Below are positions 4,301 to 41,483 of a stretch of DNA of 64,000 nucleotides, one piece after another. Position numbers and translations under genes: made by a program. Under the pieces are notes generated by a model. That model made no database searches and was not told where the DNA came from. It saw nothing but the letters and a program-made list of their open reading frames with translations. This DNA comes from Candidatus Dojkabacteria bacterium. GTDB taxonomy: Bacteria; Patescibacteriota; Dojkabacteria; JAOAGR01. Position 1 is the first letter of the stretch, and each line of letters begins with the position of its first letter. The stretch is taken from contig JAOAGR010000002.1 of the NCBI GenBank assembly GCA_026415655.1, positions 131,237 to 195,236 of the forward strand, written 5' to 3'.

Positions 4301-5023
4301 TCATACCTCGCCGGATACTTGTTGCTTTGAGTTAACAATAATAACAGTACCCGTTGGTAAATCAATCCTACCACATTGCATTAATTCGCTGCCGCTCGTC
4401 CGTAACAATTTCAAAGTAACAGTTATAACATTGTTGGGTACATCTATTTCTATGTCTGCATGAGCAAGTGGATGGGATAGTAGACTTGGCAATATAAGGA
4501 GCTTAGCAATGACACTATCAGGTTTATCATGTGTTCCCATATTAGAAATTGCAAACAAAATCGTAGCTGCGGATGGAATAGATCTTCCTAATACATCAAG
4601 GATGTTTTTTATCCAGATTTTGAATCCTATTTCACCCTCATGGCATGATAATGCTCCGAATACAGAAGCTAATGTACTGACTTCATCTGGAGTTGATAAG
4701 CACATAAAAATAGTTCCTTTACATCTATTAGCTCCTTCATTTGGGTGATTACCGCCTTCTTCATTTTGGCGATTACTACCATTTTCCTGTGCATTAGCGA
4801 CTTTGAAGCCTAGAGGGCTATTCATCTCTCTTCTAAATCTAAGAATGTCCTCTTCACTGGCCGATCTCATTTCCCCAATATATTTATCTCCTTCAAATCC
4901 CAATGGACCTATTTGACGCGGATCGGGGATTCGAACCCCTTCATATAATATATAAGTTTTACCAGTACCACGAAAAGCGTCAAGAATCGCACGTTCAATA
5001 TCTTGACTATATGCATGCGACAT
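4301..5023 (-). CDS. Hypothetical protein from a high-GC, atypical-codon family (a paralog of 38276..38773)
   Basis: 240 aa ORF with GC markedly above the surroundings (CGG/GCC/CCG codons). It shares ordered motifs with the 38276-38773 ORF: AYSQDIERAILDAF / SYAIDEQEIARVL; IPDPRQIGPLGF / VPHPCRIVLGPDGISF; FMCLSTPDEVSTL / FTGCSTEDGRNLL; ISNMGTHDKPDSV / AAFGENDSPLACP. Confidence 0.55.
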   Translation of the reverse strand: MSHAYSQDIERAILDAFRGTGKTYILYEGVRIPDPRQIGPLGFEGDKYIGEMRSASEEDILRFRREMNSPLGFKVANAQENGSNRQNEEGGNHPNEGANRCKGTIFMCLSTPDEVSTLASVFGALSCHEGEIGFKIWIKNILDVLGRSIPSAATILFAISNMGTHDKPDSVIAKLLILPSLLSHPLAHADIEIDVPNNVITVTLKLLRTSGSELMQCGRIDLPTGTVIIVNSKQQVSGEV

Positions 5024-25967: not shown

Positions 25968-26369
25968 ATGGAAAGAATAAAATTAAATCAAATGAACAAA
26001 AAATCAATATTTTTAGCAATTGGATTACTGGCTATTTTGGCTATTGGATCAATTATTCTCTATTTATCTTTTTTACAAAATCAAAGTTCATCAGGGGTAG
26101 TATCCGAAAACACCGAATCTGGCAAAATAGATGAAACGAGTGATTCTATTGATGCCAAGCAGACACCGTTTTCGGAATTAGAGAAAACTGATTTTGAGAT
26201 TGATTCGAATCTACGAACAGTGGAAGGTATAAAAGATAATATCTTAAATTATATTTTCGGTGATGAAGAGTTCAGAAATGAGAATTTTTATAGTCTGATG
26301 TCTGATACGATTAATCTAGCATTAATAAATAAGTATGATATTAATGCTTTTGTCCCTCGTTTTGATTGA
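25968..26369 (+). CDS. Type-II membrane-anchored hypothetical protein. Probably the N-terminal part of a single gene continuing into 26529..27335 across an in-frame TGA.
   Basis: 133 aa with an N-terminal TM (IFLAIGLLAILAIGSIILYLSF). Its TGA stop (26367-26369) is followed by 53 stop-free codons in the same frame leading into the next ORF. Confidence 0.5.
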   Translation: MERIKLNQMNKKSIFLAIGLLAILAIGSIILYLSFLQNQSSSGVVSENTESGKIDETSDSIDAKQTPFSELEKTDFEIDSNLRTVEGIKDNILNYIFGDEEFRNENFYSLMSDTINLALINKYDINAFVPRFD

Positions 26370-26528
26370 GCAAAGAAAATAGATGTAACAAATTATGAAA
26401 GAAATTTCATTGAAATAAATTATACTGTTAAGGAAACTAATAGTACTAATTTCAAGTTTAGATGTACACAAGTTTTAAATGTATATTTAATAGCAAATAT
26501 ATGTAAAGACTCAAATGATCGCATTAAT

Positions 26529-27335
26529 TTGGAGAAAAGTGCCCTTCATTTTGTGAAAAAAGCTTCAGACCAGATTAATTATAAATTTGTACAACGAATA
26601 AATGAAAATAATGATAACTACGGATATAAATATATGATTTATCAGTATCCATATTATAATGTTGCACTTTACAATATTTTTCAAGAATATGCTTATATTT
26701 ATGAAAATATTGATGAAGCACTAATAGATAATACTGGGAACAAATTTGTTGTAATGGTAAATATTGATGATGTGCAAATTGTTTACGATCATCCCAAGTT
26801 ATTTGAAAGCAATAATGAAGAAGCGGAGAGATATTTTGATATGATAATAAATGAAATATCAGAACAACAATCTATTGTAAAGGTTGAGGAAAATTATATT
26901 TTTAATATTGATGAATTTGTAAATATGTATCCTGTTTTGGTTCCACAAGGTAAATTTAAAGAATTTGCGTATTTCAGTAATTATAAAATGGGGGTTGCAA
27001 ATATGAATTATGGAGATTCTACCACTATCAGGATTATTCTTGAATTCTACAAGTACGGTAGTCAAGGAAATGAGAATGTAAATTGTTCAGATGAAAACGG
27101 TACAAAACAAATAATTATCGAAGGAAAATCATTTAACGCCAATGTATGTCGAGGTGATAGAATAGCTGGTAATGTAGTAAAGCTTACCAATGTAAAAGGT
27201 TATGATATTTATGTTCAGGCTGTTGATTATTCAATGAATCCTGAAGATAACTCAGTGGATATCATGCCAAGAGAATTTCGCTTTATGACCGCAGATGAAT
27301 CGCCTAAATATGAAATGAAAGTGCAACAATCATAA
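26529..27335 (+). CDS. Hypothetical secreted-domain protein (TTG start as called; same frame as 25968..26369)
   Basis: 268 aa with no signal peptide of its own. Carries a Cys-bracketed motif (NCSDENGTKQIIIEGKSFNANVC) similar to the two larger neighbours. Confidence 0.5.
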   Translation: MEKSALHFVKKASDQINYKFVQRINENNDNYGYKYMIYQYPYYNVALYNIFQEYAYIYENIDEALIDNTGNKFVVMVNIDDVQIVYDHPKLFESNNEEAERYFDMIINEISEQQSIVKVEENYIFNIDEFVNMYPVLVPQGKFKEFAYFSNYKMGVANMNYGDSTTIRIILEFYKYGSQGNENVNCSDENGTKQIIIEGKSFNANVCRGDRIAGNVVKLTNVKGYDIYVQAVDYSMNPEDNSVDIMPREFRFMTADESPKYEMKVQQS

Positions 27336-29465: not shown

Positions 29466-30015
29466 TAGATAGAATTCTTAATTTAAAAGGATTATCTATA
29501 TATTCAATATAATAATTTTAGAATTTTGAAATGATATACTTTTAATAAGATCAGAAAAATGAACTGATATAAGGTTGCTATTTAACTCTAGAGTGAAGTA
29601 TTGAAGGAGAGGGTTGTATCTTACAGAATATTATTGAGAATATTTTTGTTAAACAAGGTGAATTTCGATATTAAAAGGTTAGGTGCTAATGCATCATGGT
29701 AATGGTAAACACCTTATAGTTATTAATTATCCAATTTTCATAAATAGATTATAGACTTAATGTAATTCGACAATGGGGAATAATATGATTTTTATAAGAC
29801 GTTCCAAAATTATGGGTTGCCAATAACGATCTTAATATATAGTTTGCATCCAAAAAAGACTAAATGATTCTGTTTCCTGGTGATAAACGTGGATTATAAT
29901 ACACAAAATTACTTTATGCGTTAATATTTACGAATTTATTAGTACTGATGTGGTTTGAATCAATTAATTGTGGACATTTTAATATTGTAAATTTTATTAA
30001 AAGTGCTAAACTACA

Positions 30016-31399
30016 TTGATGTCGAATGATAACTACGTTAATCAAATAGTTTCACAGCTACAAGCTGGCATTCCAGAGCAACAAATCTACAACAACCTAA
30101 TAGCTAGTGGAATTTCAAATGATGCAGCCATAAATTTGTTGAATAATGCCAAATATTTGATGTCTTCCATCCAAAATTCGTCTCCTCAGGGATCATCGGG
30201 TCAGTTTAATTCTAATTTTCAGAATAGTGTTCCTAATATGCAATATTCTGGACAACCAGGTCCTAGTCCTGTGAATTTTATGTCGCCTAATTTACAACCT
30301 AATAACCACATTCCAAATAACATTAATTATCCATTGGAAAGCATGAGTTCAAATACTGCAGGAGGATTTGGTATGAATATGCTAATAGTTGGACTTTTGA
30401 TTTTTGGAGTTTTGCTGTCTTTTGTCTCATATCTTGGACTGGCGTTTCCAAACCTAGATTTAAATGGATTTGAACTGTCAAAATTTTTTTGGTTGGTTGG
30501 TGTCTTATCATTAGTATTATTTATCATTCCCTCCGCAATTTTGTTATTCGTTAATAAAAATAAAATATCTAATTTTTTAGTTGTGGTAATAAGTGTGTTT
30601 TTGTCGATGTTTTTGGTACTTGCAAATACAGGTGCTGGGGCATTTTTGTCATTTAGAGATTCTTCTGCACAAAATCAAGAGAACAACACTAATTTGTCTA
30701 AGAATGATGATGAAAAGACGCAAAAAGAGAAAAAAGACGATCAAAAGTCTAACCCTTCACCAACAAATACTCCAAAAAAAAACTCCAACATTCACTCCCA
30801 CTCCTACTCCTACAGCGAGACTTACACCTACGAGAACAGCTCCAATACCAACTCAAGGTCCTGACTATCAAGAATATTTAAATTACTTAGAAAACAATAC
30901 TTATCGTTATACTAATACACAAAATAGATTTTCTTTGAGGATTCTCAATACTTTAAGAAAAGTGTTTACAGATAATACCGATCCTAATAATTACTCAGAA
31001 ACATTTGGTTCTTCTGACGGTAATACATCTTTATCAATTATATATGGTAAAAATCAAAATAATTCCAATGATTTTAGAAATGTATATAGTTTATTGAATG
31101 ATATTGAAGATTCAATAAAATCATCAAATAAGAATCTTGGTGTTACTTGTAATGTTCAAGATGTAAAAGTAGAATATGTTGTTTGTCAGTATGTTACGAC
31201 TCTTCCAAATGGAAAGTATGCATATGTGGTTCAAACTGTTATACCAGATCAGAGAGATTATTCAGGTATTGTTGTGTTGACCGGACTTTTTTTGATACAA
31301 AATCCAGAAGCAGCGGAGAATTTGTTCAATGAAGAAAAATTTGCTTTATTTATAATAAGTATAGGGGTTTATTCAGCTTATACCATTGAATTTAATTGA
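30016..31399 (+). CDS. Membrane/surface protein split by a +1 frameshift at an A9 tract (30774-30782). N/Q-rich N-terminus, TM helices, Pro/Thr linker, C-terminal globular domain.
   Basis: Track ORFs 30016..30864 and 30593..31399. The PT-rich linker ...SPTNTPKK continues as TPTFTPTPTPTARLTPTRT... only in the +1 frame after the A9 run. An A8 allele would give one continuous ~465 aa protein. Confidence 0.6.
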
Positions 31400-32254: not shown

Positions 32255-33331
32255 TTGTTTTGCATTGTGAATAGGCTTTTAATAATAGACATTATTAGGG
32301 GACACTTATTACTTGCTGTAATATGGGATCATCTAGCCTATCTTATAGGACCATCGATCTTTGCTTACTACAATTATTTTGGTCTTTTGTGGGTATCCGC
32401 GGCAGAGGGATTTGTGATTATTTCAGGTTTTTTGTTGGGTTATTTATTTCTATATAAGGGTAGGTATTCAAGCAAAGAGTTTATCAAGATAATTTCAAAA
32501 AGGATAGTGTTATTATACTCAATATCTGTTGTATCAACAATCTTGGTTTCTATCTTTTTTTGGGGCGGAAACAAACTTGAATTAAGTGGAATATGGCGTA
32601 GTAATCGGCCTCGAGAGTTAGATTTTTTTGAATTAGTTTTATATTCGGTGCTTTTTATCCATCACTTTGGTTGGATGGATATTTTTGTGCTTTATGTATG
32701 GTTGTTTTTGATTGCTTTAGCGATACTTCCTATTATGAAAAAGCATAAATTCTCTTATATAATGGTTTTAATTGTCTCTTTTTTGATCTGGTTATTTGAT
32801 AATGTATATCGTTTAGAGTTAAATCTTATACAGGTTAGCTCATTTAGACTTCTATCATGGCAGTTTTTGTTTACTATTAGTTTAGTTTTAGGTATGCATT
32901 TTGAAAGGTTACGAGATATTTTAATCTACTTTTATAAAAAAAATATATTACGCATTTTTGTAATAGTTGCATTTATAATTTTTTTTATTTTGGGAATCAT
33001 ATTTCCATATATGAAGAATGATCTTCTTTTAATTTTATTCTCAAAAGAATTTGTCGGCTTGGGTAGGCTGATTTTATCGTTTTTTTGGTTATATTCTGTT
33101 GGGATAATATTGAAAATTTTGTCTGATAGAATAAATTTCTTGGGTAGTACGTTATCCTACATCGGTAAAGAATCTCTTTATGTTTATGCGGTACATGCCG
33201 TCATTATTACTTTTTTGGATAAAATATTTATTAGTGATTTATTTCTAAATAGTTTATGTGTATTTTTAATAACGATATTTATATATTTCCTTGTTTATTT
33301 AAAACATAAATTTTTGAAAAGATTGGGTTAA
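32255..33331 (+). CDS. Acyltransferase family 3 (Acyl_transf_3/OpgC-like) integral membrane protein
   Basis: N-terminal IDIIRGHLLLAVIWDH matches the acyltransferase-3 motif (LDxLRGxAALxVVxxH). About 10 TM helices, 358 aa. Confidence 0.6.
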   Translation: MFCIVNRLLIIDIIRGHLLLAVIWDHLAYLIGPSIFAYYNYFGLLWVSAAEGFVIISGFLLGYLFLYKGRYSSKEFIKIISKRIVLLYSISVVSTILVSIFFWGGNKLELSGIWRSNRPRELDFFELVLYSVLFIHHFGWMDIFVLYVWLFLIALAILPIMKKHKFSYIMVLIVSFLIWLFDNVYRLELNLIQVSSFRLLSWQFLFTISLVLGMHFERLRDILIYFYKKNILRIFVIVAFIIFFILGIIFPYMKNDLLLILFSKEFVGLGRLILSFFWLYSVGIILKILSDRINFLGSTLSYIGKESLYVYAVHAVIITFLDKIFISDLFLNSLCVFLITIFIYFLVYLKHKFLKRLG

Positions 33332-33395: not shown

Positions 33396-34037
33396 ATGGA
33401 GAATACCACAAATAGTAATTCAGAAGTTAGTATCAATAACAAAGATAGAAGCAAACTTCCACTTCTAATAACCACAATTATTTCTATTTCTACATTAGTT
33501 ATAATTATATTTTTTAGTTTTTTACCTAATCTTGTAAAGATGCCATTAACAAAATATAAATTAGTATTTGCAGTGATTGTTGAGAAATTTCAAGATGTTG
33601 AGAATGTTCAATATAATTATGTTTATTCTTTAAACAAAGTTAGAATAAGCAAAAATCAATATAAAATAAAAATTTCAAATCAAAGAGGCGAGGATATAAA
33701 TACTGTAAGGCAGTTTTTTTCTACAACTAGGAAATATTATATGTATGACTTTAAATTGGGAAATATGAAAGAAATAAATTTAGATGATGCTTTATCGATG
33801 GCTTATTATATGAATCAAAATTTTGGCTTTACTCATAATGTAAGTGCACTTTGTGATGATTCGCCCGATGGGTATAAGTTGGAAAGTGTGGGTAATTATG
33901 ATTTCCCAGATTATAAAGTCAAACCAGAATTGATGGATTACCAAGATGAGGACAAAGGATTGTACATAAAAAATTTTTTTGTTCGACATAAGTTTTATGA
34001 TGGATATATGTCCGAATGTTTTGGCTGGACACTATAG
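33396..34037 (+). CDS. Type-II membrane-anchored hypothetical protein
   Basis: 213 aa with a signal-anchor (LPLLITTIISISTLVIIIFFSFL) followed by a Cys-containing extracytoplasmic domain. Confidence 0.55.
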   Translation: MENTTNSNSEVSINNKDRSKLPLLITTIISISTLVIIIFFSFLPNLVKMPLTKYKLVFAVIVEKFQDVENVQYNYVYSLNKVRISKNQYKIKISNQRGEDINTVRQFFSTTRKYYMYDFKLGNMKEINLDDALSMAYYMNQNFGFTHNVSALCDDSPDGYKLESVGNYDFPDYKVKPELMDYQDEDKGLYIKNFFVRHKFYDGYMSECFGWTL

Positions 34038-35086
34038 ATAAAATTTATATTTTTATGACAAAAGAAATGCCAAATGCTACACAACGAAAATTATCGATAG
34101 AATTTATAGATATACTCTTTTATGTTTCGTCCTTGATAATATCAATAGGTACTCTGGTATTTATAAATCAATCATTGAATTTTATTTTGAAGTCAATCAT
34201 AGTAACGTTTCTGGCTGTCTTACCTGTATTATTAGTTTTATTTGTCAAATTTAGAAACATACAAATGTTTGAAAAATTGGAGAATCCACTTTTGTTATTG
34301 CATGTATTGGTCAGTACATCGGCTTTTTATGCCTGGTACGAACCCATCGCTGATCTGTTTCTAATGTTGTTTGAGTATAAATTGTTACATGTATATTATA
34401 TTTTGCTGGTTTCTTTGGTATTGGTAGTATGGTTTTGGTTTTTATCTAGAGTTTTAAATGGAAATCAGTTACTTATGTATTTTACTATCATTACTTTGCC
34501 AGTTAGTTATATATCGTTAATACAGTCTTACTTAGAATTATTTCAAGATCTATTTAACATAAAATATCCTTTTGCTGATTGGAGTAGCTATTACCATTTT
34601 TATCAATTTATTGTTATGACAGTTGGTTTAAGTTTATTTTCTATATCAAATTATTTGTATAATTTGGGTAGTAACCATCGTATTTTGATGTATTTTGTAA
34701 GGATAAGTGCACTTATTGCAATATATTTTTCTCTTGTGGCATTTACATCTTATTTCGCTTATAACGATGTCATTCACACATTTTTGTTGTTTTTCAACTA
34801 TGTAATTGTCCTATTCTTCTTTTATTATTTTAATAAAATAAGGGCTGTTGATGGTTATATATTAACTTCTATATTTTTAGTTTCATTAATTAATTATTCG
34901 ATATTTTATTTGCTTAACAAATTTGATTTTCTGGTGGGACGAGAATATATAGGGACCTTGATCTTTATTACATCAGGTATTTCTTTGTTAATTATTTCTG
35001 TGATTGGTTATTATTTTTTGAATAAAAAAAAGCTTGTGAGTGGTACAATTGACAACTTACACAAGGAAGAGAACGCACAAAGCTGA
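34016..35086 (+). CDS. Polytopic membrane protein (~9 TM)
   Basis: 356 aa with multiple hydrophobic helices. Overlaps the preceding ORF by 22 nt in another frame. Confidence 0.55.
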   Translation: MFWLDTIDKIYIFMTKEMPNATQRKLSIEFIDILFYVSSLIISIGTLVFINQSLNFILKSIIVTFLAVLPVLLVLFVKFRNIQMFEKLENPLLLLHVLVSTSAFYAWYEPIADLFLMLFEYKLLHVYYILLVSLVLVVWFWFLSRVLNGNQLLMYFTIITLPVSYISLIQSYLELFQDLFNIKYPFADWSSYYHFYQFIVMTVGLSLFSISNYLYNLGSNHRILMYFVRISALIAIYFSLVAFTSYFAYNDVIHTFLLFFNYVIVLFFFYYFNKIRAVDGYILTSIFLVSLINYSIFYLLNKFDFLVGREYIGTLIFITSGISLLIISVIGYYFLNKKKLVSGTIDNLHKEENAQS

Positions 35087-35331: not shown

Positions 35332-36735
35332 TCATCGATTATTCTGGACTAATGCTTCACATTTAGTATCCAAGTCATCTATCTTTATCCTAATTTGTTC
35401 CATGCTATCTCTGTCTCTTATTGTTACCTTGTTATCTTCTAGTGTTTGATAATCGACAGTGATGCAATATGGAGTACCGATTTCATCTTGTCTTCTGTAT
35501 CTTTTTCCAATAGAACCGGAATCATCATATTCTGCAATATAATATTTTTTGATATGATGATAAATTTCTTTAGCTACATTTTGTAGATCTGGCTTTTTAA
35601 ATAGCGGCAAAACAGCAAATTTGATAGGACTGAGCCTTTTATCCAATTTTAATACAATTCTTGTATCATCATTAACAATTTCTTCTGTATAAGCATTGTC
35701 TATGAACATCATGACAAATCGTCCAAGTCCAGCTGAGGTTTCTAAAATGTGTGGAATGTACCTTTCTTTTATTTCCTGATCATAATAATCTAGTGTCATA
35801 CCACTATATTTGGTATGTTGGGATAAATCCCAATTACCTCTTGCATGTATACCTTCAACCTCAGCAAATTCACCTAAACTTGCAAAGTTATACTTGATAT
35901 CATATGCATCACTTGCATAATGAGCTAGTTTTTCATGTTTATACCACTTTAGAGATGTTTCATTAATGCCATATTCTAAATACCATTTCCATCTATATTC
36001 CTTCCATTCATTATATTTGAATTCCATCTCTGAGGGATGTAAAAAATATTGCATCTCCATTTGCTCAAATTCTCTTGTTCTATAAATAAATTGCCTAGCT
36101 ACTATTTCATTTCTAAATGCTTTACCCACTTGTGCGATACCAAAAGGCAATTTTGCATGTAAAGTGTCTACTACATTCTTAAATTGTAAATATATTCCTC
36201 CACAAGTTTCGGGCCGTAAATAGGTTAGTTCATCATCAGAGATAGAATCAACAGTACATCCAAGATTAGATTTAACCATCAGAGAAAATCTACGAGCTTG
36301 TGTCAAGTTTTTTGATTTACAGTTTGGACAGAATAGTTTGTTATTTGTTCTTAACTCATCTAGTTTTTGATTTATCTCATCCGTTGTTGCTTTATCATCG
36401 ATTTCGACACCAAATTCTGCCAATAGATGATCAGCTCGGTATCTGTGCTTGCAGTCTTTGCAATCTACCATTGGATCGTCAAAGGTAGCTACGTGGCCAG
36501 ATGCCACCCAGGTGGTTGGATGCATGAAAATCGCAGAGTCCAATAAGTAAACGTCGTCCCTCTCATTGATCATATTCCTAATCCAAGCATTTTTTATGTT
36601 TTCCTTGAGTAAATAGCCATAATGTCCATAATCATATATTCCAGAAAGACCACCATATATCTCTGAAGATGGATAGATAAAGCCACGCGTTTTACAAAAA
36701 TTAGCTAATTTTTCTAAAGAAAGAGATTTTGACAT
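35332..36735 (-). CDS. glyQS: Glycyl-tRNA synthetase, homodimeric alpha2 type
   Basis: Class II aaRS core of alpha2 GlyRS type, with an insertion carrying C-x2-C...C-x2-C (CKDCKHRY...FCPNCKS). Length 467 aa. Confidence 0.88.
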   Translation of the reverse strand: MSKSLSLEKLANFCKTRGFIYPSSEIYGGLSGIYDYGHYGYLLKENIKNAWIRNMINERDDVYLLDSAIFMHPTTWVASGHVATFDDPMVDCKDCKHRYRADHLLAEFGVEIDDKATTDEINQKLDELRTNNKLFCPNCKSKNLTQARRFSLMVKSNLGCTVDSISDDELTYLRPETCGGIYLQFKNVVDTLHAKLPFGIAQVGKAFRNEIVARQFIYRTREFEQMEMQYFLHPSEMEFKYNEWKEYRWKWYLEYGINETSLKWYKHEKLAHYASDAYDIKYNFASLGEFAEVEGIHARGNWDLSQHTKYSGMTLDYYDQEIKERYIPHILETSAGLGRFVMMFIDNAYTEEIVNDDTRIVLKLDKRLSPIKFAVLPLFKKPDLQNVAKEIYHHIKKYYIAEYDDSGSIGKRYRRQDEIGTPYCITVDYQTLEDNKVTIRDRDSMEQIRIKIDDLDTKCEALVQNNR

Positions 36736-36780: not shown

Positions 36781-38049
36781 TCAATTTTGATATTTTTGAT
36801 TAATAATCTCTTCTATTCTTATCAATTCATTGTATTTTGCTACTCTATCTGTACGCGATGGTGCACCGCTTTTTATCTGACCACAATTTGTGCCAACAGC
36901 TAAATGGACAAGTGTTACATCTTCAGTCTCGCCTGATCTATGACTCACTACATTTTTCCAACCAGCATTTTTTGCCATTTTTATTGCTTCTATTGTTTCA
37001 CTTAGAGTACCAATCTGATTCATTTTGACTAATAGTGTATTACACAAGCTATTTTCAATTGCCATCTTAATTCTTTCAGTATTTGTAACAAGTAAGTCAT
37101 CACCAACTATTTGTAAATTATTACCATACTTTTGATTACAAATACGCCAGGATTCAATATCATCCTCACAAAACCAATCTTCAACGCTGATTATTGGATA
37201 TTTTTCATAAAGATAATTAAACCATTCAATCATTTCATCAGAAGTTTTTTCTACACCATCCCTTTTTAATACATACATACCTTTTTCGGCATCAAAAAAC
37301 TCGCTAGCAGCAGCATCAAGTCCTATTGCAAAGTCTATTTCAGGCTTATATCCAGCTAGTTCTACTGCGTTAATGATTGTTTGGATAGCGTTTTCGTTAG
37401 ATTCAAAGATAGGGGCATAGCCACCTTCATTACCTACATTTGTGCTGTATCCATGACTTTTTAATATTTTACCTAAATGGTGATAGACTTCTGCGCACCT
37501 TCTTAGATTTTCACGCCAACTAGAAATATTTATCGGTATTATCATGTATTCTTGTATATCTGTTGCCCAGTCAGCATGCTTGCCTCCATTCATGATATTC
37601 ATCATGGGACGGGGTAGAGAATAGGTTGTGTTTGCTGATATTTCACCGATATATTCAAATAACTCTAAATTTCTGCTATTTGCACTAGCCCATGCATATG
37701 CCAAACTTACCGCAAGGATTGCATTTGCACCGAAGTTTGACTTGTTTTTTGTCCCATCTAGATCTATCAGTCTTTGGTCAAACAATTCTTGTTTATTTGA
37801 TTCAAATCCAAAAAAGTAGGTATTGAATAAGTTATTTATAATATTTACTGCATTTAATACGCCCTTTCCTAGGAATCTTTTAGGATCATTATCACGTTTT
37901 TCTACCGCTTCATAGGAACCTGTAGATGCGCCAGAAGGTACAGATGCCCTGCCTTTGGATCCATCATCTAATATAACTTCAGCTTCTACTGTGGGATTGC
38001 CACGTGAGTCAAGAATTTCTCTGCCAATTATTTTTATAATCTTTGCCAT
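36781..38049 (-). CDS. eno: Enolase
   Basis: MAKIIKIIGREILDSRGNPTVEAEV N-terminus plus the enolase signature region. Length 422 aa. Confidence 0.95.
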   Translation of the reverse strand: MAKIIKIIGREILDSRGNPTVEAEVILDDGSKGRASVPSGASTGSYEAVEKRDNDPKRFLGKGVLNAVNIINNLFNTYFFGFESNKQELFDQRLIDLDGTKNKSNFGANAILAVSLAYAWASANSRNLELFEYIGEISANTTYSLPRPMMNIMNGGKHADWATDIQEYMIIPINISSWRENLRRCAEVYHHLGKILKSHGYSTNVGNEGGYAPIFESNENAIQTIINAVELAGYKPEIDFAIGLDAAASEFFDAEKGMYVLKRDGVEKTSDEMIEWFNYLYEKYPIISVEDWFCEDDIESWRICNQKYGNNLQIVGDDLLVTNTERIKMAIENSLCNTLLVKMNQIGTLSETIEAIKMAKNAGWKNVVSHRSGETEDVTLVHLAVGTNCGQIKSGAPSRTDRVAKYNELIRIEEIINQKYQN

Positions 38050-38275
38050 ACAATATCATTTTAGTATATTGTATAAACTATTTGCAGAATATATAACTTG
38101 TTTTTATATTAAATATGTAATGTTATATAAAGATAATATAGCCTTTGTGTAATGTTTATAATGATCAAGATGTAATAGAATTGTGTTATATAAAAATATG
38201 TTAGAGTTATAGTTGATGGGAGAGTAAGGTTGGCACAACTGATTAAATGTATTAGAATACTATACTATGTTTAGT

Positions 38276-38773
38276 ATGCGCGAAGACTTTTCCTACGCAA
38301 TCGATGAACAAGAGATTGCACGTGTTCTTTGACGATCTATAGATTACTCTGTTCCTCACCCATGCCGTATTGTATTAGGTCCTGATGGAATAAGTTTCTA
38401 TGATACCAATCCTAAATCTGTTACACCTGATGGAAGTAATGAGAATGGTAAAATAGAGTTTACTGGTTGTAGTACAGAAGATGGACGTAATTTACTGGAA
38501 TTATTTAAAGTTATGGTGCAATCAATAGCGGCGGGTTATATTCAATTACCAGATTTAAAGGAAGTAAAGGTTATTAGCACTATTGAGGTAGTTGAAGGAG
38601 CATATCTATTAGCATGCGCAGTCGCAGCATTTGGAGAGAACGATTCACCATTGGCATGTCCAGTAAGATATACAGACAGAATAGAAACGTTGTATAGAGG
38701 GTATGAAGTACCAAACACTTATGAGGCCAGGGTAGACAACAACGGATTTATTCTTCATTTAAAGTATAAATAA
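38276..38773 (+). pseudogene. High-GC-family hypothetical gene (paralog of 4301..5023) interrupted by an in-frame TGA at 38330-38332. The track calls only 38513..38773.
   Basis: ATG 38276 gives MREDFSYAIDEQEIARVL, then TGA, then 60 stop-free in-frame codons (RSIDYSVPHPCRIVLGPDGISFYDT...) joining the called ORF. Paralog similarity spans both sides of the TGA. Elevated GC. Confidence 0.55.
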
Positions 38774-38787
38774 CCTAAGAATTAAAG

Positions 38788-40179
38788 TTAAGTTATATGA
38801 TCTTCTAACGTACTTACTTTCGTTCTCAATCTATCCGCCTCTTCCCATCTTTTCTCAGCACGTAACTGATTCCATTGGGATTTTAATTTATTTATTTCAT
38901 TTTCATGTGGATTTACTAAGTTTTCTCTAATCTTTAACCCCAGCACCTCATCGAAGCTTAAAATTTGTTTTAATTTTTCATCAACATTAATGTTTTGATC
39001 TTTTAATAACTGAAAAAACACACCCACCGCTTTTGGGACATTGAGATCATCTGCAATCGCATTTTCGAATTCCTGCTGATAAGTATTTTGTAATTTTTCC
39101 GATGGAACATTGTTAGAATCAGAAAATGAGGATAATCTAAATAATTCTCTTATTTGCTTGTATATTTTTCTTAGAGCATTTTGACTAGCGGTCAGAGAAT
39201 CAAATGTAAAGTTTAGTTGATCACGATATTTATTTTGTAAATAAAGCAATCTTAATGCTAATGGATGAAAACCTTTTTCTTGTAAATCACTTAAAAGATA
39301 TGTGTTGCCAAGAGATTTACTCATCTTTTGTCCTTCAACCAAAATATGCTGATGATGTAGCCAATACCTAACAAACTGCTTGCCTGATACACCTTCGCTT
39401 TGGGCAATTTCATTTGTATGATGAATGTTTATGTGCTCAGGACCACCAGTATGTATGTCTATTTGTTCACCCAACAGTGCAAATGCCATAGCACTGCATT
39501 CGATATGCCATCCCGGGAATCCATCTCCCCAAGGGGAATCCCAATGTAATATATGATTTTTGAATCTTCCAATTCTTTTAAACCACAAAGCAAAATCATA
39601 TGGTTTTTTCTTTTGTGGATCAACATTGACTTCATCTCGAGCTGCCTGGATAAGATCTTCTAATTTTTGTTTAGAAAGTCTTGTGTAATTTTCAAATTTA
39701 TCTACTTCAAAATATAACGCTTCATTAGTTTCATAGGCATATCCTTTCTCCTTCAGGATTTTGTTCATTTCAATCATTTTCTGGATGAATTCTGTAGCTC
39801 TTGGTCTATATGTGGGATGAGTAATATTTAGTTTTTCTACATCTTCGAGATATTTTTCAGTAAAAAACTGAGCTATTTCTAAAGGTGACTTACCATATTT
39901 TTTTGCTCCTTTTTCAAGTTTATCTTCGCCTTCATCACTATCACTTGTCAGATGTCCAACGTCGGTAATATTCATGACATTTATAACTTCATAACCTAAA
40001 TATCTAAAAATTCTAGCCAGATAATCCGCAAATACTGCAGAGTAGAGATTACCAATATGTTGATAATCATAAACTGTTGGACCACAACTGTATATTTTTA
40101 CCTTACCATCTTCTATGGGAATAAATTCTTCTATTTTACGAGTTAGAGTGTTAAATAAATAAATTTTTAACATACTCAA
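38788..40179 (-). CDS. cysS: Cysteinyl-tRNA synthetase
   Basis: HIGN (HIGH) motif, KMSKS motif, Zn-binding Cys residues. Length 463 aa. Confidence 0.93.
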   Translation of the reverse strand: MSMLKIYLFNTLTRKIEEFIPIEDGKVKIYSCGPTVYDYQHIGNLYSAVFADYLARIFRYLGYEVINVMNITDVGHLTSDSDEGEDKLEKGAKKYGKSPLEIAQFFTEKYLEDVEKLNITHPTYRPRATEFIQKMIEMNKILKEKGYAYETNEALYFEVDKFENYTRLSKQKLEDLIQAARDEVNVDPQKKKPYDFALWFKRIGRFKNHILHWDSPWGDGFPGWHIECSAMAFALLGEQIDIHTGGPEHINIHHTNEIAQSEGVSGKQFVRYWLHHQHILVEGQKMSKSLGNTYLLSDLQEKGFHPLALRLLYLQNKYRDQLNFTFDSLTASQNALRKIYKQIRELFRLSSFSDSNNVPSEKLQNTYQQEFENAIADDLNVPKAVGVFFQLLKDQNINVDEKLKQILSFDEVLGLKIRENLVNPHENEINKLKSQWNQLRAEKRWEEADRLRTKVSTLEDHIT

Positions 40180-40371
40180 ATTGTATCAGATTTTCACTTT
40201 TGTATTACAGTGATTGATTTTAAGAGTTTATTATTAAATATAACTTAAATATTCCAATTGTCAGTTAAAAAAGCGCCGTTAATTAGTAATTAAATAATAA
40301 AATTTCTACTGATAAGTATTTATTGGATTATGAAATTTTTATTGATTAAATAGTTAGAATTCAGTGTATAT

Positions 40372-40400
40372 AAAAAAGCATGCCTAAAAAAGGCATGCTC
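40372..40400 (-). terminator. Rho-independent terminator downstream of rplL
   Basis: On the minus strand: GCATGCC-tttttta-GGCATGC followed by ttttttata. Positioned 20-50 nt after the rplL stop. Confidence 0.7.
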
Positions 40401-40421
40401 TCGAAAATATATTTAATTAGT

Positions 40422-40802
40422 TTACTTCAACGTTACTTTTGCTCCTGCTTCTTCTAGTTTTTTCTTGATTTCTTCAGCTTGTTCTTTTTTAACACCGGAC
40501 ATTACAATAACTGGTGCTGATTCAACTTTGGCCTTTGCTTCTGCCAATCCTAGGCTTTGATCAATCTCTCTCAGAGCTTTGATTACATTCAGCTTCTGAG
40601 CACCAATTTCGGTTAATTCCACATCAAATTCGGTTTTTTCTTCTGCAGCTTCTGCTGCTTGTGCTGGTCCTGCCGCAACTGCCATAACAGGTGCTGCCGC
40701 AGTGACACCAAACTTCTCCTCCATTGCTTTTTTTAGCTCTGCAGCTTCTAGCAAGGTTAGAGAAGCGATTTCTTCTAGTAATTTTTGAATTTTCTCTGAC
40801 AT
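40422..40802 (-). CDS. rplL: 50S ribosomal protein L7/L12
   Basis: N-terminal dimerisation helix, Ala/Glu-rich hinge ([22 protein letters not shown]), C-terminal domain ending ...GAKVTLK. Confidence 0.93.
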
Positions 40803-40805
40803 GAT

Positions 40806-41318
40806 TTATTGATTTTGTTTTTTAGCTACTTCTTCTACGAGATATGCAATATCTCTCATCACAGCATTTATAGATCCAACAACACCGCTTGCTCCAGAGT
40901 CCAAAAGATAAAGTATTTTTGCCAGAGTTTGTTCTCTGGATTCAACTTTGGATAATTTGTCTATTTCGGAACCATCATGTAATGTTCCTTCTACAAAACA
41001 GAAGAGATATTCACATTTTTCCTCTTTTTTTAATGCCGCCAATTTTTTGGCAATTTCAACAAAATCATCATAACAAAAAAATACAAATATCGGTCCTTTT
41101 AGATCTAATTTCGTGGATAAATTTTCATCCGCTGCTATTCTAAAAAGTGTATTTTTAATTAGTGTAAAGTAGCAATTCTTTTCTTTCGCGTATTGCTTCA
41201 ATTCATTAGCCTCTTGACCGTTGAAATTGCCTCTAATAGCAAAAATTGCATTAGATTTAGATATAGAATCCTTATAAGTATCTAAAATAGCTGATTTTTG
41301 TTGTCTTGTTTTTGCCAC
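40806..41318 (-). CDS. rplJ: 50S ribosomal protein L10
   Basis: 170 aa L10-like N-terminus, immediately upstream of rplL. Confidence 0.85.
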   Translation of the reverse strand: MAKTRQQKSAILDTYKDSISKSNAIFAIRGNFNGQEANELKQYAKEKNCYFTLIKNTLFRIAADENLSTKLDLKGPIFVFFCYDDFVEIAKKLAALKKEEKCEYLFCFVEGTLHDGSEIDKLSKVESREQTLAKILYLLDSGASGVVGSINAVMRDIAYLVEEVAKKQNQ

Positions 41319-41483
41319 AACAAGTTATTCGATTTATACAAAACGTCTTCCCCGTAGACGTGAAGTCAAAGAAACTAGGAAAATAAGACTAAAAACCATT
41401 TAAAGTCTCATTAGGTCTTATTTTTGTGCCTAATTTCTCTGACTTTCTGACGTATTATACACAAGAGATAAGTTTAGTTCAAC
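41319..41483 (-). promoter_or_regulatory. Probable rplJ leader (L10/L12 autoregulatory 5' UTR) and/or rpoD terminator region
   Basis: 165-nt untranslated gap between rpoD and rplJ with stem-loop potential (aagactaaaaaccatttaaagtctcattaggtctt). By analogy with conserved L10 leaders; structure not verified. Confidence 0.3.

Follow-up and report, generated by a model that had tools for sequence, protein, structure and literature searches.

The stretch of DNA analysed here (64,000 nucleotides from a Candidatus Dojkabacteria bacterium, hereafter the window) contains, between the genes for enolase and cysteine-tRNA ligase, a reading frame of 165 codons that we call ORF165 (38276..38773, + strand). 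Judged by its translation and codon usage, it would be an orphan gene that has become a pseudogene in this strain. The frame opens with ATG 38276 (an alternative in-frame ATG lies at 38267, + strand), continues through 18 sense codons (MREDFSYAIDEQEIARVL) and then encounters a TGA at 38330-38332. The 146 codons that follow are free of stops, and run through ATG 38513 to the TAA at 38771-38773. These coordinates agree exactly with the original prediction, which had described the ATG, the in-frame TGA and the open frame leading into 38513-38773. Only the C-terminal remnant of 86 codons (38513..38773, + strand) is annotated in the source MAG, as a hypothetical protein (MCX8034876.1, N3A71_01130). 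The enolase gene on the left (36781..38049, - strand) is divergently transcribed. On the right, the gene for cysteine-tRNA ligase (38788..40179, - strand) is convergent, its stop codon being located 14 bp from that of ORF165. The product of the repaired frame is acidic (18.5 kDa, pI 4.7) and has no clear predicted membrane span. A single-sequence AlphaFold model of it reached a pLDDT of 39 and is unusable.

ORF165 is a real coding frame on either side of the TGA. A codon-usage log-odds score was trained on 40 long window genes, which themselves obtain between 0.14 and 0.37 per codon (median 0.29); the repaired frame obtains 0.32. The two off-frames obtain -0.57 and -0.84, and the three reverse frames -0.09 to -0.58. 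The segments before and after the lesion score alike: 0.35 for codons 1-18, 0.37 for codons 20-79 and 0.30 for codons 80-165. It could be objected that ORF165 is only a chance ORF in an intergenic spacer, so that its TGA would be meaningless. Indeed, it has neither a homologue outside the species nor a domain, no Shine-Dalgarno sequence precedes its predicted start, and its standing as a gene is read from sequence. We consider this extremely unlikely. In frame, ORF165 scores above the median real gene and none of the five other frames reaches a positive value, the GC content by codon position (0.51/0.38/0.25) is gene-like, and a stop-free run of 146 codons stands out within a genome of 31% GC.

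The signals found upstream also argue against a chance ORF. Promoter-like signals are present at 38230..38265 (+ strand), namely TTGGCA-17-TAGAAT (38230-38258) and TATACT (38260-38265), the latter ending about 10 nt before ATG 38276; these are consensus matches only. The internal ATG 38513 has no -10-like or Shine-Dalgarno signal of its own. Among the gene starts of the window, a Shine-Dalgarno-like motif is found for 1 of 40 genes, and a -10-like hexamer (TATAAT box) whose end lies 4-16 nt upstream of the start codon for 22 of 38 genes, versus 11.3 +/- 2.8 in shuffles. Both counts together suggest that mRNAs are mostly leaderless or have very short leaders in this Dojkabacteria genome. ORF165 would carry the expression signals typical of such a genome that makes little use of Shine-Dalgarno sequences.

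Codon 19 is TGG in all other sampled populations

Contigs of the same species from other metagenomes, with 99.6-99.9% DNA identity to the window, were found by exact look-ups of two proteins: CysRS and P0001, a protein of 95 aa (98% identical) that is the only relative of ORF165 in the word-indexed search. Eight aligned copies of ORF165 represent four alleles. Codon 19 is TGG (Trp) in all seven other contigs that cover the site; these come from six samples (ERZ3623746, SRR6344962, SRR34265295, SRR27730022, SRR27730038 and SRR27730049). The intact allele of 165 codons, with TGG at codon 19, is present in SRR27730038, SRR27730049 and SRR27730022, and the intact protein of 165 aa (P0130) is recorded on 5 same-species contigs.

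The window allele (codon 19, 38330..38332, + strand) differs from these copies by the TGA and by two private substitutions. The first, at 38241 in the promoter spacer, is a G where all other copies have T, and creates an upstream in-frame TGA without consequence. The second, at 38578, is synonymous (codon 101, AGC here and AGT in all seven other samples). Two further alleles are disrupted at other sites. In ERZ3623746 and SRR6344962, the AAGG of codons 95-96 (38558..38561, + strand, present here) is deleted; this 4-bp deletion is a frameshift that stops ORF165 after Lys95, the 95-aa product being P0001. In the SRR34265295 population, codon 53 (38432..38434, + strand, GGA for Gly and intact here) is TGA. 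As read from these alleles, ORF165 appears to have been inactivated three separate times, by TGA at codon 19, by the 4-bp frameshift and by Gly53>TGA. It can be noted that an exact 10-nt direct repeat, CCTGATGGAA, is located inside ORF165 at 38381-38390 and 38426-38435 and encodes a Pro-Asp-Gly motif twice, 15 codons apart. Its second copy is the site hit by Gly53>TGA.

One of the runs, SRR6344962, originates from Zavarzin hot spring in the Uzon Caldera, Kamchatka (PMC8468003), and we are thus dealing with a hot-spring organism. Apart from this Kamchatka run, the wide geographic separation of the sampled populations is deduced from their accessions.

Since codon 19 is TGG in all other copies, the change is a third-position transition from TGG to TGA (G>A at 38332, followed by C). 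The original prediction had proposed a CGA>TGA transition from an ancestral Arg, after alignment with a supposed paralog, ORF 4301-5023, whose similarity was said to extend on both sides of the TGA. It had also asked for a comparison with other copies and strains, in which the TGA at 38330-38332 is found nowhere else. The alignment that had suggested Arg does not exceed chance. BLASTP of ORF165 against ORF 4301-5023 gives no alignment in the claimed register; the best match (E 0.21) pairs residues 131-147 with residues 18-34, in a different register. When either protein is searched against the window with tblastn, it returns itself only. The Smith-Waterman score over the full length is equalled or beaten by 793 of 2000 shuffles, and 1011 of 2000 score as well when the N-terminal 60 residues are compared, i.e. 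40-50% of shuffles match. A relative of ORF 4301-5023 is also absent from the exhaustive phmmer results for ORF165. Paralogy of the two was therefore rejected, and there is no such family in the window. ORF 4301-5023 itself (- strand) is an unannotated-looking frame of 240 codons with a coding score of 0.28 and a TATAAT box 8 nt before its ATG; it has no family match in PHROGs, PADLOC or NCBIfam. The exact products of ORF 4301-5023 and Nth are both absent from the assembly collection.

ORF165 had also been described as a high-GC member of that family. While the family is not supported, GC is indeed raised (37.6% versus 31.2%). The excess resides in codon positions 1 and 2, and GC3 is host-like (0.25 versus 0.23 for window genes), which indicates that the excess reflects amino-acid content and not a foreign origin.

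UGA is a normal stop codon in this genome

The 42 long ORFs of the window comprise 17,668 codons, with 121 TGG and not a single in-frame TGA. Eleven of these ORFs end in TGA, including those for MreB, enolase and GlyRS, which have normal lengths; the MreB match extends to the end of the Pfam model. The orthologous genes of the sister species stop at TAG (enolase) and TAA (GlyRS), where the window has TGA in both cases. UGA is thus a normal stop in this Dojkabacteria genome, which uses the standard code, and the exclusion of a global TGA reassignment in the original prediction was correct. In CPR bacteria, UGA recoding is restricted to the Gracilibacteria/JAEDAM01 lineage according to a review (PMC13293708). 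We also scanned the window for TGA codons with good coding frames on both sides. The ORF165 site came first, with one other convincing case at 26367; both are private mutations. Because the three TGA nonsense mutations known in the species replace Trp, Leu and Gly, no single reassignment fits.

A programmed recoding of the TGA in ORF165, either as selenocysteine or, throughout the lineage, as Trp (code 4) or Gly (code 25), was nevertheless considered. Under code 4, a TGA would indeed be expected to take the place of a Trp codon, and code 25 is in use in one lineage of the CPR, the group to which the organism belongs (PMC13293708). Set against this are the codon counts given above and the conserved genes that end at TGA. 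Moreover, the TGA of ORF165 is private to one assembly and hence cannot be a programmed signal, and the homologous residue is Trp, not Cys. A SECIS-like hairpin just 3' of the TGA, for which the original prediction had advised to look, is not present: the 71 nt from the TGA onward have a minimum free energy of -12.8 kcal/mol (z = -0.73 versus shuffles), and Rfam detected neither a SECIS element nor tRNA-Sec in the window. No sel gene was found by Pfam scan among 28 window ORFs plus two strain-restored genes, and tRNA-Sec, selA, selB and selD were not found within the 64-kb window. The window contains neither tRNA-Trp nor prfB. As a programmed event, the recoding listed among the options of the original prediction is effectively refuted.

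Readthrough could also be unprogrammed. If tRNA-Trp read the UGA-C at codon 19 often enough, useful amounts of wild-type ORF165 would be made and the allele would be hypomorphic, not null. Poole et al. are said to have described UGA-C in 1995 as a weak termination context in E. coli, but background readthrough in bacteria is generally low. Since the ancestral residue is Trp, the residue that near-cognate tRNA-Trp would insert at UGA, a little full-length wild-type ORF165 could still arise. Background UGA readthrough by near-cognate tRNA-Trp(CCA) has been reported in E. coli (PMC13092985), and UGA followed by C is a weak termination signal in eukaryotic systems (PMC9841425). TGA also accounts for three of the four nonsense mutations of the species versus about 30% expected, although this is not significant. 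On the other hand, there is no stimulatory structure after the TGA (z value given above) and the TGA is not conserved. The other alleles, a frameshift and a Gly>TGA change, could not be restored by insertion of Trp. A functionally relevant leak at this UGA is unlikely, and a hypomorphic allele that still provides enough ORF165 to be useful appears very unlikely to us. Two genes of the window (35332-36735, - strand, and 34016-35086, + strand) have a TGA stop with a second stop codon directly after it. Such tandem stops would be in keeping with a slight leakiness of UGA as a terminator in this organism, and suggest that leakage is guarded against rather than exploited.

Private changes are concentrated in disrupted genes

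The TGA allele is known from one MAG assembly only, and cells might in fact have TGG at codon 19, the TGA being a consensus artefact. Another private change of the same MAG, an additional A within the A-run at 30774, is of a classic error type and splits a gene of 459 aa. However, the lesion in ORF165 is a substitution and not a homopolymer indel, and the same 340 bp hold the two further private substitutions at 38241 and 38578. The other private nonsense mutation of this MAG (at 26368) also falls in a gene that is independently knocked out elsewhere, as would not be the case for random errors. Furthermore, loss of ORF165 is certainly real in other populations, the 4-bp deletion being present in two independent metagenomes. 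An assembly or sequencing error is therefore unlikely, and the TGA would be real in the cells of this strain.

Private changes were also compared more broadly, between the window and at least three other populations over 16.3 kb. Six of the eight window-private changes fall within, or directly upstream of, three genes: ORF165, a gene of 455 codons described below and the gene of 459 codons. All three are disrupted here, and together they represent 20% of the compared length (P = 0.0013). When the three lesions themselves are left out, 3 of 5 private changes remain in or near disrupted genes (P = 0.06). Genes that had already been inactive for some time in the lineage would be expected to show such a concentration. 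The 459-aa gene (30016-31399, + strand) is split into two overlapping ORFs by the extra A at 30774, either a real frameshift or an error in assembling the homopolymer. It is intact in three other populations, and window-private substitutions are also found at 30010 and 30966.

ORF165 appears to be restricted to one species

An exhaustive phmmer/HMMER search with residues 20-165 of ORF165 against 1.84 billion representative proteins retrieved the same-species cluster and eight tandem-repeat proteins (E 3e-11 to 7e-4). The latter are long proteins matching different parts of the query. As their scores are sums of weak repeat matches, these candidate distant homologues were judged spurious. ORF165 has no family in Pfam, PHROGs, PADLOC, NCBIfam or the PDB sequences, and no copy was found in GTDB genomes or JGI metagenomes. 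A scan of GTDB with the enolase gave a best identity of 57%, so that GTDB contains no close genome. In a sister species whose CysRS is 87% identical, two contigs show eno adjoining cysS with a gap of 219-251 bp, in which no trace of ORF165 was detected by alignment or tblastn. Among relatives with about 60% CysRS identity the eno-cysS synteny is lost, so that ORF165 may either have been gained in this species or lost from the sister species. From these searches, ORF165 appears to be an orphan confined to one hot-spring species of Dojkabacteria.

In one of its options, the original prediction had called ORF165 a selfish gene, but nothing marks it as selfish or mobile. Its flanks contain only weak AT-rich repeats and no noteworthy flanking repeats, and ORF165 has no tblastn match in phage or plasmid records and no PHROG or PADLOC match. 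A phase-variable contingency locus was likewise rejected: there is no tandem repeat in 38000-38900 and no simple-sequence repeat in ORF165, and the three disrupted alleles were broken at separate sites, two by point mutations and one by the 4-bp deletion.

A probable recent pseudogene and possible parallel loss of genes

Taken together, ORF165 most probably represents here a fresh pseudogene of a dispensable, species-specific orphan gene, generated by TGG>TGA. A gene of 165 codons specific to the species would sit between eno and cysS, and a G>A transition would have turned the Trp codon 19 into TGA in the window strain. Since UGA is a normal stop in this organism, translation would end after 18 residues, without a useful product being made, and the annotated tail of 86 codons would be a remnant of a recently inactivated gene. 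The other populations, at 99.6-99.9% DNA identity, would either keep ORF165 or have destroyed it independently. A fresh pseudogenisation had been one of the options in the original prediction, and is the one favoured by the TGG of the other copies, the coding frame on both sides of the lesion, the functional TGA stop and the existence of an intact 165-aa allele. For annotation, this means that N3A71_01130, the hypothetical protein of 86 aa, should be marked as a pseudogene tail, and that this Dojkabacteria genome can be read without recourse to recoding or to another genetic code. ORF165 may possibly be disadvantageous, beyond being dispensable.

The second private TGA (26367-26369) is codon 134 of a gene of 455 codons (25968-27335, + strand), whose product has a membrane anchor at its N-terminus and lacks Pfam domains. 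All other strains have TTA (Leu) at this codon. Over 1,396 aligned bases of this gene in five strains, there are three variable sites, all of them knock-outs: the TTA>TGA of the window, a 1-bp deletion in SRR34265295, and a different 1-bp deletion common to four SRR277300xx samples. The gene is intact in ERZ3623746. When the two lesions that led to the discovery are left out, 4 of the 6 remaining events in ORF165 and the 455-codon gene are loss-of-function. The neutral expectation is 7-21%, which gives P values from 0.0004 to 0.02 according to the proportion of indels that is assumed, for a sample that is small and a comparison that is post hoc. This excess suggests that loss of ORF165 and of the 455-codon gene has been favoured and not merely tolerated. 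In its strongest form, ORF165 and at least one other lineage-specific gene (25968-27335) would be knocked out in parallel in separate hot-spring populations faster than by neutral decay, i.e. under positive selection for loss. We put this forward as a tentative reading, possible rather than probable. Under selection for loss, the causes would be, for example, escape from phage or host recognition or the shedding of a costly product, and UGA alleles may be favoured for their leakiness.

If true, genes would be undergoing adaptive loss in parallel in an uncultivated CPR episymbiont, and public metagenomes alone would be enough to reveal it. More broadly, the near-identical genomes, apparently from separate hot springs, differ for the most part in independent knock-outs that affect a few genes lacking annotation. 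If the same holds genome-wide, it would show gene-content turnover in CPR bacteria, and tolerated or favoured losses would provide a way to rank hypothetical proteins for study.

Two other differences between these populations are worth mentioning. The gene for an OpgC-like acyltransferase-3 (32255-33331, + strand, 358 aa) is intact here and has a CAG>TAG change at codon 203 in ERZ3623746 (L001 4586). In addition, 12 of the 26 substitutions between the window and ERZ3623746 fall in 665 bp at 40262-40926, a segment that includes the genes for L7/L12 and L10 as well as the spacer upstream of cysS. The twelve are either synonymous or intergenic, and a 5-bp indel is located nearby (41363-41367). 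From its sequence, this cluster resembles a tract acquired by recombination from a strain that is more divergent.

Comparison with known systems

An in-frame TGA where relatives have TGG is also what is seen in lineages with UGA reassignment, i.e. code 4 (UGA for Trp, in Mollicutes and some endosymbionts) and code 25 (UGA for Gly, in Gracilibacteria/Absconditabacteria), and this Dojkabacteria genome resembles those lineages in being AT-rich, small and of the CPR. In contrast to them, TGA ends 11 of 42 long genes here and is never internal, it exchanges with TAG or TAA at orthologous stops, and the mutations to TGA replace Trp, Leu and Gly alike. With bacterial selenoprotein genes, in which the UGA is accompanied by a SECIS hairpin directly downstream, ORF165 shares only the in-frame UGA. 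It differs from these genes by having no SECIS-like structure, by Trp instead of Cys in the other copies, by the UGA not being conserved and by the lack of selenocysteine machinery in the window.

Like contingency (phase-variable) loci, ORF165 is "on" in some populations and "off" in others, but it has no simple-sequence repeat, and its lesions are at different, non-repetitive sites and not readily reversible. It is more like taxonomically restricted (orphan) genes: short, found in one species, absent from the corresponding gap in the sister species, and polymorphic in presence and function. Unlike in a young de novo orphan, its codon usage is fully host-like and its GC1 and GC2 are high, so that ORF165 is not obviously a young de novo ORF; it may have arisen by transfer, de novo birth or divergence.

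The closest parallel is with bacterial pseudogenes created by nonsense mutation. The same type of single-base change from sense to stop is found, with an intact allele in the same species and a similar build-up of private substitutions in the dead copy, and nothing essential differs. What sets ORF165 apart from the usual nonsense pseudogene is the occurrence of three apparently independent null alleles among genomes that are only 0.1-0.4% apart.
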